Below are positions 9,621-64,000 of a stretch of DNA of 64,000 bases, in pieces (positions within the stretch are counted from its first letter, which is position 1; each line of letters opens with the position of its first letter). Origin of the DNA: Octopus sinensis (Eukaryota); the NCBI RefSeq assembly GCF_006345805.1, contig NC_043007.1, positions 38,130,001-38,194,000 of the forward strand, given 5' to 3'. Below the pieces are notes generated by a model. It worked only from the letters and a program-made list of their open reading frames with translations, did no database searches and had not been told where the DNA came from. Made by a program: the position numbers and the translations under genes.

Positions 9621-10091
9621 TCCAAGCACTGCTGTAAACATAACTACAAACTATGTATAGGACTATGTAAAAGATAATATATCTACAAGTACAAATAACT
9701 GAGTTCATGAACTTGCTGTCAGTGGGATGGTTATAACTGCATTGATGTTATTTAGCCCCAAGTCAGTCTGGTCCGAAAGACAATTATCAAAGGCATTATT
9801 TTATTCTTTTATTCTTCTACTTGTTTCAGTCATCTGACTGCGGCCATACTGGAGCACCACTTTGAAGAGTTGTTTTAATCCAACAAATTGCCCCCCAGGA
9901 CTTATTTTTTAAGCCTAGTACTTATTCTATCAGTCTCTTTTGTTGACCCACTATATATATATATATATGATATAAATAACACACACACACACACACATAT
10001 AGTTAATCCAAACAAGAAAGCACAAAAAAACACAACAACACGAGGACGTGGAACAAATATAGTATTACTGGACGCACAGGAAAGAAGGAGG

Positions 10092-10126
10092 GTTTAACGT
10101 TTCGAGCGGAGCTCTTCGTCGGAAAC
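10092..10126 (-). ncRNA. Variant minimal hammerhead motif in a PLE-type terminal-repeat fragment (~10000-10160)
   Basis: Minus strand: GUUU-CCGACGA-A-GAGC ucc GCUC-GAAA-CGUU-AAAC; U4->C core variant, AACGUU palindrome. Confidence 0.55.
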
Positions 10127-54502: not shown

Positions 54503-55417
54503 TATGTTGTTCATAAGCAGAGATGTTGCAGAACAATATGCTAAAATCTCTCAAACTTGAAACAAAAGCCAGGCCTGATCCTTGATTGACCTTAAAAATC
54601 TGGGAGATGCCTGGAAGGACTATAGATTCTGCCCCACCTACTTGGATAAAAGGATTAAATAATAAATAATAAAAAAACAAGACTAAATCACTGGACTATT
54701 TTGTTAAATATGTATATGTGTGTTTGTGTGTGCACATACGTTTGTGTGTAGTGGATATATAGGTCATAAGGCAGTGTGTTTAAAGGTCAGAAGTCAAAAG
54801 TACATCTATCAACCAAATTTATCAAACAAAATATTTTAGCTGATTGCAGAATAATCACATGGGCTTTCTTTCTCTCTTTCTTTCTTTCTTTCTTTCTGTC
54901 ATTTAATGTATTGAACCATTAACAAAACATCCAGGACAGATAATTATTATTTTTTTATTATTATGGTTACTCGACTTTACCATATTTGCCACTTTTTTTT
55001 TTTCGAGGATATTAGCTTTCTCATAGTGTGGCTGTGTGATAAGAAGCTTACTCTCCAACTACATGGTTCCAGATTCAGTCCCACTGGGTGACACCTTGGG
55101 CAAGTGTCTTCTACTATAGCCTCAGGGCAACCAAAGCTTTGTGTGTGAATTTGGTAGATGGAAACTGAAAGAAGCCTGTCATATATATAAGTATATATAT
55201 AAAAATTAGAAAAAAAAACACCTTTTATCAATTCAAAATAAACAATTAAATTACACCATCTAGAAAATTACATAAATAGAAATATTAAAAATAAAATAAC
55301 AATAATATACTGATGATTAAGTAAAATTCAAATTAATAATATAAACTTATATATTTGTTTAATATTTCTATTTATGTAATTTTCTAGATGGTGTAATTTA
55401 ATTGTTCATTTTTTCTA

Positions 55418-55467: not shown

Positions 55468-55870
55468 ATGTCTCTATGAGAGATTTAGAAATTCAGTATT
55501 TCTTATTTTGATAATCAGTGAATAGACTTCACTGAATTATAGATATATACAATTACGAAGTTGAGACAAATATCACCAGCTGACCGGTGTCTGCTACTCT
55601 AGGCCGATGAAGGACAATGATCCTGAAACACGTGTCCCTAGATGCAGCTTCAGCAGCCGGGGCTGTTTGTCTCCCCTTCGTAAATGTATATAATGACACA
55701 GGGAAAAATGTGTCAAAGCCATCAGGACGCGTTCGATGCTTCCTAGGGCTATACAGCGGTCGTGTACCCCCTACTGTTACGTTCGTGTTAGATTGACAGT
55801 ATACAACCATTCTATCGCCCCACCACCATACATGTCTCTACGAGAGATTTAGAAATTCAGTATTTCTTAT
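55468..55870 (+). mobile_element. Retrozyme/PLE-like 364-bp unit with 39-bp terminal direct repeat
   Basis: atgtctcta(t/c)gagagatttagaaattcagtatttcttat occurs at 55468-55506 and 55832-55870. The unit contains a hammerhead and is flanked by (TA)n. Confidence 0.65.
55598..55642 (+). ncRNA. Minimal hammerhead ribozyme with CCGAUGA core variant
   Basis: tctagg-ccgatga-agga caatga tcct-gaaa-cacgtg-tc-cctaga: 6-bp stem I, 4-bp stem II, palindromic stem III, GUC triplet. Confidence 0.75.
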
Positions 55871-56454
55871 ATATATAATATTTTGTGAAATTTGATTTAG
55901 TATTTCTAAATTGAATTTTTCCCTGTAAGTTAGGAATAATATTCCCTCAAATAATTATTATAAGTATATATATATCTATGTGTGTGTGTCTGTGTTTGTA
56001 CCCCACCACTGCTTGACAGCTGATGTTGGTGTGTTTATGTCCCCATAACTTAGCGGTTCAACAAAAGAGACCGATAGAATAAGTACTTTGCTTTAAAAAA
56101 AATTAGTCCTGGGGTCGATTCATTTGACTTCAAGGTAGCACCTCAGCATGACTGAAACAAGTAAACAATAAAAGATACTAATGATTTCAATATCATCAAA
56201 ATTATATTTCAGAGTGTACATGCCAGACAAGTTACTTGATCTGAGACTATGTGTTGAAACTAAAACGATTGCAACATGGAAGAAGACATGTGTCAGCCAT
56301 TCACTAGCACATGAAGATGTTAATATTACTTAAACATTTATTATAGTAATTAAACATTAAAAGTAACAATTTCTAACTTTAAAAAGCTCCAGGCCCACTT
56401 TTGCTCTTCTCTGTCACAAGTTGGTTCTTATCATGATGTTATGATATTTGATAT

Positions 56455-57255: not shown

Positions 57256-58095
57256 GGTATTTATGTCTGTATGTGTGTATGGAAGGTTATATGGATGTGT
57301 AGGGGGATGTCAGTTTTTTTCTATATTGAGATTTGAGAGAAAATTCTAAGATGACAGGTGCTATGCAACTTCATATCAAAAACCCACCAAACACTGCTTA
57401 TAATGCAAGAATTGAACCTGTAAATAAAAGAGATGGAAAAAAGATGTTGAGTATTACAGTTGTTTCGAAGGTACATCGGGTGTATCTTATGTGGCATTAT
57501 GAATGTACTGTAACTGTCCAGTGTACATTTTCCTTGGGTACATATGACACTTTAGTTGAAAATAGTCTACTGTAGTGGAGAATGCAGAAAAGAAAAAAAA
57601 TGGGAATGGAGATTGAAATCAGTAAAAAAACGAGGTGTGCATTACTAACCAATTACCTTAGCGAGATAGACAGGGGTGTGGTATCATTTCATTATCAGCA
57701 TGCTCAAATTTTTGCAGTGGCTGATAATGAAATGGAACAGACATATGTAAACAAGCGTGTGTGTATACATATGTGTGTATGTTTATCTCTATATATATAA
57801 AACTGAGAATGTCTGTCTGTCTGTGTGTTTCCCTATGTCTTCAGGTGCTTAGTCCCAGCTGGCGGGGGTGATTGCCTCCCCTTTGCAAATATAAGGACAC
57901 AGAAAATGTGTCAAAGCTGACAGAAGACATCAGTGTTTCCTAGGGCTAAATGGCGGTGGTGTAATTCCCTTACGGGACTGTCACATTGAGTTGACAGTAT
58001 ACGACCACTATATCCTTAAATTGATTTTTGTGTTATATAAAAAACAATAGACATGCAGTGCATGACTAGCATGTCTCAACTGCACCCCGCTGATA

Positions 58096-58156: not shown

Positions 58157-58375
58157 ATCAAAGCAATTAAGATTCAAGTCAATTCCAATGAATTTACTTG
58201 AATGTGGTACTTAACTTAGATGCACCAGAAAAACTATATGGTGTTAACCATACAGTAATGTGGGGTGATTATAAACGAGAAAGAAGCAACAAGAATGGAT
58301 TAGTTTTTAGTACAATTGTATGAAACAATTGTACTAAAAACTAATCCATTCTTGTTGCTTCTTTCTCGTATATAA
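58150..58375. mobile_element. PLE-type fragment with a perfect 45-bp foldback
   Basis: Arms 58275-58319 and 58325-58369 are exact reverse complements. The fragment contains GAAA-CAATTG-TA (a hammerhead 3' half) and has (TA)n flanks. Confidence 0.6.
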
Positions 58376-62264: not shown

Positions 62265-64000
62265 TATATGATGGACTCTCCCATTGGTTTCGATGTATGA
62301 GGCTCCAACAATGTACTCTTTCTCTGTCAGTCATAATGCTTATGTTGAATGTGACATTTAAGTCCCATCGACGATTTGCAAAGGAGGCCATGGGTGTTGC
62401 AAGTATGAGGATTACAGATCAGTGCAGGTGATATATTTGCAGCCACTTTTCTCCTTTTCCTTGCACACCAAAGCCTGTTAATGTTGGTTGCAGCAAAATT
62501 TTTAATACCATTTTGACACAATCTCTATTTTGTTCATTCCAAGGCTGCTTGCTCAAAAGTGTTGTGAGCTATCTTCATCTCTAAGAGGTTAGTCTTCAGC
62601 TTACTTATATATTTAAGCCATGGTCAACCAACAATCTTGTGCCCACTCTCAAGCTGGCTGTACATGAGGACTTTGGGTATTCTTTTGACACTTATTCTGA
62701 TGACATGGCCAGCCCAGTGTGATTGTGATTGTATAAGGAAGCTCTCAATTCCCCCAATCTTACACTTACTAAACAGATCGCCATTAGAAACTTTGTCTTT
62801 TAGTGAATAACCACAGATTGTCCTCAGATAGTCTTTGTGGAAGATGTCTAGTTGGTTAATGTGTCATCTATAGGGTATCCACGATTCTGAGCTATACAAG
62901 AGAGTAGTAAGAATGGTTGCTTTATAGACCTGTTCTTTGGTGTCAAGTTTGATGCTCCTTTCATTCCATAGGTGATGACAGAGTTTGCCAAATGCATTGG
63001 TTGCCTTTGCAAGACGGTTGATGGTTTCATCATCGTGGGAAGCACTCAAATTCACTTTACTACCAAGATGACTTCACATAATTTAGGCTTTTCACATTAA
63101 CCTGTATAGGAGTGTTAGGAAAATTGTGAACCAGTAGCCTCTAGTTGACCCCTCGAATTTGTTTAGGAGTAGGGCAAGGTTTGTGATTTACTTCTATCTT
63201 CTTTGACTATCTGCTGATGGTCAAACCAAAGGCTTTATGTGCAGCAGAAAACCGGTCTAGAAGTTTCTGAGCTTCGTCTAAAGAGGTCGCTACTGGTGCA
63301 GCAGCATCTGCAAAAAGTAGATCACAAATGATACTGGTGCATAGCACTGATCTGGCTTTGAAACACTGATGATTGAATAGTCCACCACTTGTTCGAAACT
63401 GGAATTTAATACCATTTTTTTTTGTCACCAAAAGCAAACCTCAGCATCACTGAAAAGAAGAGAGTATAAACAAAATAGGGGCCATAACACAACCTTGCTT
63501 TGTGCTGTTTGTAACATTGAAGGAAGTCAAAGATTCCCTACTGTCTTCATTCCCTCATGAAAGGAGATGATAACATTCAATACCTTGTCAGGTATACCAA
63601 GCTTTTTCAGAACTTTCCATAGTGCTTGCTGGTTAACAGTGTCAACAGCCTTAGTAAGGTCAACGAATATCAAGAACAACACTTGATTTTTCTCACATAC
63701 CTTCTCCATGACCTGTCAGAGAGAAAAGATCATGTTGATAGTGCCATGACCAGAGTGAAATCTGCACAGTGATTCTGGATAGATATCATTTACAACATGT
63801 TCGATGATCCTGTCAAGAATGAGTCAAGCAAGAATCTTACCAGCAATAGACAGAAGTAATATTCCATGATGATTATCACAGACACTTCGGTTTCCTTTGT
63901 TCTTATAAAGATGCTGATTTGAGGCATCCTTGAAGTCCTGTGGTACATAGCCTACCATCTAAATGTTTATGAAGAGGTCATGCAGTTTCTTAGAAAACTT
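62265..64000 (-). mobile_element. RTE (BovB-like) LINE, RT region plus 3' end, degenerate; runs off the window
   Basis: Motifs FVDLTKAVDTVNQQALWKVLKKLGIP, KQGCVMAP, DLLFADAAA, FGLTIS and LLYSSESW; the 3' end runs into (TACA)n. Confidence 0.9.

Follow-up and report, generated by a model that had tools for sequence, protein, structure and literature searches.

A 5'-truncated retrozyme of Octopus sinensis and its conserved RNA fold, a likely binding and start signal for a Penelope-like enzyme

Positions 57834-58014 of the analysed window (64,000 nucleotides of the Octopus sinensis genome) are best explained as a 5'-truncated copy of a non-LTR-type retrozyme, the fold of which is likely a binding and start signal for the reverse transcriptase (RT)/endonuclease of a Penelope-like element (PLE); we give this reading a probability of about 0.6. 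Judged by sequence, this copy (subfamily B) and a neighbouring one (subfamily A) represent two subfamilies of a large superfamily dispersed in the O. sinensis genome, and it is very probable that the superfamily consists of retrozymes mobilized by PLEs. The superfamily has a unit of 354-365 nt (354 nt in subfamily B and 364 nt in subfamily A), a hammerhead motif, a covarying domain, two preferred end points and insertions with two arms. The retrozyme is already a known class of element; our literature search turned up no account of either this domain or retrozymes in octopuses.

The window copy and its neighbour

The features of the two copies and of the adjoining repeat are as follows.

57786-57835, plus strand: start (50 nt) of another, Helitron-like repeat family, overlapping the subfamily B copy by 2 nt (TA)
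57834-58014, plus strand: 5'-truncated retrozyme copy of subfamily B, unit positions 159-339 of 354, without hammerhead core or tail
57834-57845, plus strand: hammerhead remnant in the B copy, by comparison with full copies (3' side of stem III, GUC triplet, 3' strand of stem I); predicted cut position after 57839
57840-57893, plus strand: 3' arm of the long rod in the B copy, partner arm absent; contains a G-rich/C-rich stretch able to fold locally
57896-57912, plus strand: hairpin H1 (GACACA/TGTGTC), stem near-invariant, loop variable
57915-57947, plus strand: hairpin H2, with AGCY/GGCT base, conserved internal loop and covarying upper stem
57953-57961, plus strand: 5' strand of the closing helix P4, the 3' partner strand lying beyond the end of the window copy
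57967-57997, plus strand: the two inner hairpins of the P4 junction (CCC/GGG and CTGTCA/TGACAG)
57998-58014, plus strand: AC-rich single-stranded linker with the first preferred end point (site 1) at approximately 58013, where the window copy stops
55468-55871, plus strand: subfamily A copy consisting of a full unit and a further 39 nt; its end coincides with the second preferred end point (site 2)
55598-55642, plus strand: type I hammerhead motif of copy A, with CCGATGA core at 55604 and GAAAC at 55625; predicted cut after 55636
55688-55851, plus strand: structured domain of copy A in full, including both strands of P4 (55756-55764 and 55821-55829) and a tail hairpin

The initial annotation described the B copy as a diverged second copy of the sequence at 55640-55815. 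The similarity itself is genuine: 57856-58014 and 55651-55816 are 71% identical over 168 columns (blastn E-value: 3e-16), with an alignment score of 169 compared with a maximum of 71 in 1000 dinucleotide shuffles. The window copy is not a local diverged duplicate, however, as it is 94-97% identical to 39 other matches of its own family. Nor does it represent a type of copy that lacks a hammerhead. Full subfamily B copies have a hammerhead of their own, and all 29 of the other subfamily B loci extend upstream past the start of the window copy and into it; the window copy lost its core by 5' truncation, because it starts only six bases before the predicted cut. Its first approximately 60 nt are the 3' arm of the rod. 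As it has neither a catalytic core nor a P4 partner strand, it is predicted to be a dead, inert fragment. The domain of copy A scores 115 bits with our covariance model (copy A is itself among the model sequences).

Two further features of the window lie outside these copies. Positions 55870-55975 match another repeat end (77-82% identity to loci L184, L190 and L213-L215), while 116-466 and 1545-1877 on the minus strand are exons of a cofilin/ADF-family gene (Pfam PF00241), which we take to be GMF-like.

Junction with a Helitron-like repeat

A Helitron-like 5' end had been placed at 57786, and it is real (a 24-mer of this head has 163 exact matches versus 0 for the control), though it belongs to another repeat family. 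The Helitron label is based on the TC start, the GTCT repeats and, in some copies, the hairpin-CTAG end, features that are typical of Helitrons. That a Helitron captured the domain and now spreads it, as was suggested from this head, is extremely unlikely. A true head does adjoin the window copy, but none of the 25 other heads runs into the domain, the 29 other subfamily B copies have no head and continue into the hammerhead, the rest of the Helitron-like family was not found downstream of 58014, and the 3' end of the copy is the PLE-type site 1. Where a Helitron with captured cargo would have a 5' TC head and a 3' hairpin-CTRR enclosing the cargo and moving with it as a unit, only the head was found. 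The junction, unique among 25 heads and 30 subfamily B loci, is a one-off.

The superfamily and its unit

A first-look search with the subfamily B sequence gave 2634 candidates, of which 40 were scored at 94-100% identity (the 39 others being full-length, at 94-97%), and the neighbouring A copy gave 2200, of which 40 were scored at 93-100% (the others at 93-96%); candidates overlap between these searches, and their counts are not copy numbers. Two motif patterns had 1627 and 3846 matches in the genome, compared with 16 and 3, respectively, for the controls. By following motif matches, about ten subfamilies were sampled, down to approximately 65% identity. The full unit opens with a tail containing two short hairpins, followed by another hairpin, by a long rod with the hammerhead at its tip and then by the domain. 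Tandem units, with two hammerheads 355-365 nt apart, are present at 6 of the 28 subfamily A loci (which were chosen for full length) and at none of the 30 subfamily B loci; neither copy in the window has two hammerheads. Long open frames in 60 loci proved to be microsatellite or unrelated sequence, and no ORF with RT and GIY-YIG was found among them. At 354 and 364 nt without a protein, the units fall within the approximately 170-400 nt of a retrozyme unit.

A spacing variant of the motif pattern matched only twice, both times near A or C types, and metagenome contigs contained 0 matches to a 21-base pattern. Viral contigs gave 69 pattern matches, none of which passed the nhmmer inclusion threshold, and these were taken as chance. 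An origin as a tRNA-derived SINE was rejected: ARAGORN detected a tRNA at 0 of 11 loci and the B-box pattern was found in 1 of 38 bodies.

The conserved folded domain

Downstream of the hammerhead rod lies a multi-helix domain of 165 nt, made up of H1, H2 with its internal loop, the 9-bp closing helix P4 and the two inner hairpins. In sequence-only alignments, 93.3% of 1172 cells are paired and 15 of 31 pairs show double changes. This pairing score was reached by none of 500 shuffles, and slid structures were only 32-47% paired. When RNAalifold was given ten copies, one per subfamily, it returned the same helices unprompted, plus the tail hairpin; given all 34 decayed copies, it returned H1 and H2 only and missed P4. 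Alignment A1 (34 rows) was assembled by dropping 8 of 42 candidate bodies, along with several redundant or truncated ones, and adding 5 by hand, while alignment A3 (38 rows) excludes the window copies. Majority units of subfamilies A and B fold at z-scores of about -7 to -8 (minus strand: -6 to -7), and the window stretch folded alone is weakly better than its shuffles (z -2.0).

The initial annotation had read structure-biased conservation from the two window copies. These two copies cannot carry that claim, because most stems are simply invariant between them, but compensatory changes across distant subfamilies bear it out. The formal covariation signal is modest. In a tree-aware test (our own, R-scape-like implementation), 3 of the 31 proposed pairs reached E<0.05, as did 0 of 11935 column pairs in the all-pairs test; a separate covariation test gave 2 of 30 pairs at E<0.05. 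Internal branches carry approximately 16 double changes, and pairing is preserved in almost all of these, compared with a mean of 1.2 and a maximum of 9 under a re-pairing null (2000 re-deals). Rfam has no family for the domain: at gathering and relaxed thresholds there was no match, the only hits below the cut-off being microsatellite-driven miRNA matches. Taken together, these results support a conserved, structured RNA domain without an Rfam family, and its assignment to a retrozyme is likewise supported. Readings as an IRES, SECIS element, HDV ribozyme or tRNA-like structure had no motif or Rfam support and were dropped.

All five motif pairs that had been quoted for this segment are present in the sequence, and three of them, GACACA/UGUGUC, AGCY/GGCU and CUGUCA/UGACAG, hold as helices. 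The proposed helix between GCGGUSGUGUA and UAUACRACCA does not: only 56% of its cells are paired and no pair-keeping double change falls on an internal branch. The true partner of the GCGGUSGUGUA strand is CACCACCGY (90% paired), which lies downstream of 58014 in the unit and is absent from the window copy. That the other helix appears in the fold of the window copy is due solely to the absence of this P4 partner.

Hardly any change is seen in H1 and at the base of H2, and neither gives a covariation signal. Their conservation by sequence, together with the need of the unit for some promoter, would suit a reading in which the conserved motifs act as DNA (an internal promoter or an endonuclease site) and the pairing is incidental. 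We consider this highly unlikely. G-U pairs are tolerated on the plus strand (8 of 38 rows at one H1 pair and 13 of 38 at an H2 pair), a pattern consistent with pairing in the RNA; P4 is a long-range covarying helix; and the B-box and tRNA counts given above (1/38 and 0/11) lend no support to an internal promoter of that kind.

Copy ends and insertion pattern

We mapped the ends of 84 A-, B- and C-type copies relative to the TTGACAG anchor: 39 end at +16 to +29 and 33 at +69 to +85, while 6 run on and 6 end elsewhere. The peaks are at +23 (site 1) and +78 (site 2), 55 nt apart, and the two clusters hold 72 of the 84 ends. The 30 subfamily B loci in this set were selected with a query extending to +24, so that earlier ends could not be found among them. 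The window B copy ends at +24 and the neighbouring A copy at +78. Site 1 is located inside the domain, within the AC-rich linker enclosed by P4, and it recurs in distant subfamilies (17 of 73 matches, and 7 of 11 secondary matches). At 32 of 58 loci there are arms on both strands, and in 27 of these 32 two-armed loci one end is at site 1 and the other at site 2. Inverted 5'-truncated arms and partial tandems are also present among the mapped loci. Judged by eye and with no background count, most ends run into (TA)n or AT-rich DNA and a few into (TC)n.

Insertions of PLEs are marked by 5' truncation, partial tandems, an inverted 5' copy, a one-sided tail and (TA)n targets (10.1101/2021.04.23.441226). 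In vitro, a purified PLE protein initiated at two sites within the RNA, both located downstream of the hammerhead and one of them in an AC-rich stem-loop, and the tail of the insertion is the sequence between the two start sites (PMC11167929). The corresponding tail in the octopus superfamily is 55 nt, compared with the published 30-40 nt. As the copy end points lie in the conserved fold, the domain would probably be a docking and start signal for a Penelope-type enzyme; the only link between fold and start site is their position.

Two other loci have a related layout. At L324, three two-armed insertions of subfamily J stand head to tail with a spacing of approximately 565 nt and (TA)n flanks, an array that is a local tandem duplication after insertion. 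In the window, a near-perfect 51-bp inverted repeat with a 5-nt spacer (58269-58375), situated between (TA)n runs, is probably another two-armed stump.

Hammerhead and rod

Upstream of the domain we collected 102 distinct hammerhead cores. The GUC triplet is present in 89 of them, stem II has 3 bp or more in 79 and stem I has 4 bp or more in 72. The sequences of stems I and II change in concert between subfamilies. Two subfamilies have a U3-A8 core variant that is known from PLEs (PMC4209133). The hammerhead motif of these copies was not scored by Rfam. Core position 4 is C in most A copies (CCGATGA, window positions 55604-55610; 24 of the 102 cores) instead of the usual U, and a loose motif scan of the window detected further hammerhead-like cores at approximately 10090-10122 on the minus strand and at 63366 on the plus strand.

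A unit with a hammerhead might contain a second catalytic RNA, and the conserved internal loop of H2, the multi-way junction and the lack of an Rfam match could be taken to mean that the domain is a new ligase or nuclease, or a tertiary helper of the hammerhead. This is very unlikely. The unit is already supplied with a hammerhead, conserved unpaired bases in the domain are few, and the fixed ends fit the tail pattern of PLEs: two-armed insertions finish at one of the sites on one side and at the other site on the opposite side, an arrangement that self-cleavage would not produce. From the sequences examined, nothing points to the domain being itself catalytic, and the position of the copy ends points instead to a signal for reverse transcription.

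From sequence-only alignments of decayed copies, RNAalifold recovered no helices beyond H1, H2 and, in the hammerhead region, stem II, and the rod was therefore tested by cross-pairing. Alignment A2 holds 21 of the rod candidates, apparent inversion products having been left out. The duplex between rod arms is -50.5 kcal/mol within the same copy compared with -30.1 kcal/mol across families, and the partner from the own family is best for 19 of 21 upstream arms. The rod arms thus co-evolve, with the caveat that the inversion mechanism of the family could itself re-make rod complementarity. The GGGG/CUCCCC helix of the initial annotation lies in the 3' arm of this rod and is not supported as drawn. 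A local hairpin can form in 21 of 21 copies, but once the upstream arm is included the rod takes its place in 20 of the 21, and in a fixed-column test it is no better than slid controls. The local hairpin is possibly an alternative state.

The rod bears most directly on an alternative in which the fold serves a circular RNA, through stability, nuclear export, binding of a host ligase or polymerase, or viroid-like switching between rod and hairpin, with start sites falling there only because the linker is unpaired. The unit size, the rod with a hammerhead at its tip and the strong self-pairing match the expressed retrozyme circles of mussels (PMC7229834), and both the tandem two-hammerhead units (6 of 28 subfamily A loci) and the co-evolving rod arms speak for this alternative. 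We nevertheless regard it as unlikely, as the stability of a circle requires neither near-invariant H1 and H2 sequences nor end points fixed at homologous positions across subfamilies that are 65-80% identical, and hammerhead cleavage was dispensable for PLE insertion in vitro (PMC11167929).

Search for a PLE partner

GIY-YIG elements are numerous in the genome (149 matches scored of 5029 candidates), and the partner search covered a small sample of these, 50 GIY-YIG loci. A covariance model run over 49 GIY-YIG loci and the window showed every occurrence of the domain to be an insertion of its own, bounded by microsatellite or unrelated DNA, and none to lie in a terminal repeat of the PLE itself. 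An RT + GIY-YIG family of the same genome shows the same two-end pattern. The PLE family that was examined has its two ends approximately 75 nt after the hammerhead and no such fold, so PLE enzymes do not all need the domain. One PLE 3' motif resembled the 5' strand of P4 by eye; the likeness was dropped because no complementary strand follows.

The domain could also be a legacy of an autonomous PLE, extinct or unsampled, in which it formed the 5' leader or terminal repeat and had a role in translation or splicing; the non-coding derivatives would since have carried it passively. Vertebrate retrozymes are related to PLE terminal repeats (10.64898/2026.07.22.740005), and the region after the hammerhead in PLEs is the start of the transcript or ORF. 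Compensatory changes, however, lie on branches between ORF-less subfamilies, so that selection acted in non-coding lineages, and no parent element was found among the 49 GIY-YIG loci and the window. We therefore consider passive inheritance quite unlikely.

Several PLE-related sequences were encountered in the course of the search. A two-ORF PLE family (L215:1174-5979; L222:450-1200) has intact-looking copies with overlapping frames of 479 and 781 codons, a Zn-finger before the GIY-YIG domain, a U3-A8 hammerhead core and, immediately upstream of ORF1, a tail of 35 nt. In L295, L296 and L297, which belong to one subfamily, the stretch upstream of the hammerhead resembles the hammerhead region of this family by eye, a likeness that, if true, would be a lead to the partner. 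The insert at L215:6250-6800 also bears a hammerhead but is of another kind, with a long stem II; it is duplicated upstream of the PLE together with flanking DNA, possibly by 3' transduction. In the window, 55181-55412 holds an inverted and a direct fragment with 75-86% identity to the 3' region of a GIY-YIG/PLE family (L194, L226, L227 and L230), which accounts for the inverted repeat at 55235-55412; it lies directly upstream of copy A, with a (TA)n run between them.

Proposed mechanism

In our preferred reading, that of a retrozyme with a PLE binding and start signal, a tandem or read-through transcript would be made, and cleavage of a dimer by its hammerheads may yield an RNA of unit length or a circle. 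The protein of an autonomous element would then bind the domain in trans and nick AT-rich or (TA)n DNA, and cDNA synthesis would start at one of two places: site 1, in the AC-rich linker within the P4 junction, or site 2, which lies 55 nt to the 3' side of it. Where synthesis stopped early, a 5'-truncated copy would result. For the window copy, this would mean a start at site 1 and a stop six bases beyond the hammerhead cut.

Penelope-like enzymes are the closest relatives (sister group) of telomerase. By analogy with telomerase RNA, the domain might be an RNA module of an RT holoenzyme, in which H1 and H2 anchor the protein and the P4 junction presents an enclosed single-stranded template, a tentative and rather doubtful proposal. 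If it were true, about ten co-evolved natural variants would map how PLE enzymes pick an internal start, and the alternative between rod and local hairpin would switch the RNA between cleaving and priming states.

Comparison with known systems

The non-LTR retrozymes of metazoans (PMC7229834; 10.64898/2026.07.22.740005) have in common with the octopus superfamily a type I hammerhead, a non-coding unit (350-390 nt in mussels), monomers, partial tandems and dimers, high self-pairing and PLEs in the same genome. The portions of these sources that we used describe neither a conserved covarying domain beyond the hammerhead nor mapped end points, and octopus is not among the animals they treat. They report circles and cleavage for their own species, whereas the octopus family is known from genomic sequence. 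The present results tie animal retrozymes to PLE mechanics by insertion footprints and not by co-occurrence.

Among autonomous elements, insertions of Neptune and Naiad PLEs share 5' truncation, partial tandems, an inverted 5' arm, a one-sided tail and (TA)n targets with the octopus copies (10.1101/2021.04.23.441226), and endonuclease-bearing PLEs share the U3-A8 hammerhead variant (PMC4209133). They differ in that the octopus unit has no RT or GIY-YIG ORF, and no sampled PLE has the domain. A parallel in organization is the Poseidon PLE of the green anole, PAc (PMC11167929), in which a hammerhead is followed by an RNA region needed for insertion, with two internal start sites, the first of them AC-rich, a tail between the sites and AT-rich targets. 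PAc is autonomous and this region is ORF, in contrast to the non-coding octopus unit; its tail is 30-40 nt compared with 55 nt, and its first site is approximately 90 nt after the cut compared with approximately 175 nt. The in vitro study bounded the needed RNA region by truncation only (PMC11167929). In the octopus superfamily, the RNA is compact, its fold is supported by covariation and its two putative start points are mapped from the ends of genomic copies. A priming assay could therefore disrupt and restore the helices one at a time, and the superfamily bears on how Penelope-like enzymes recognize RNA and start inside it.

SINE/LINE pairs share 3' stem-loops, such that the non-autonomous RNA keeps a structured cis-element for the RT of its partner. 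Compared with these stem-loops, the octopus fold is larger and multi-helix, has an internal start in place of a 3'-terminal one and is accompanied by neither a tRNA head nor poly(A).
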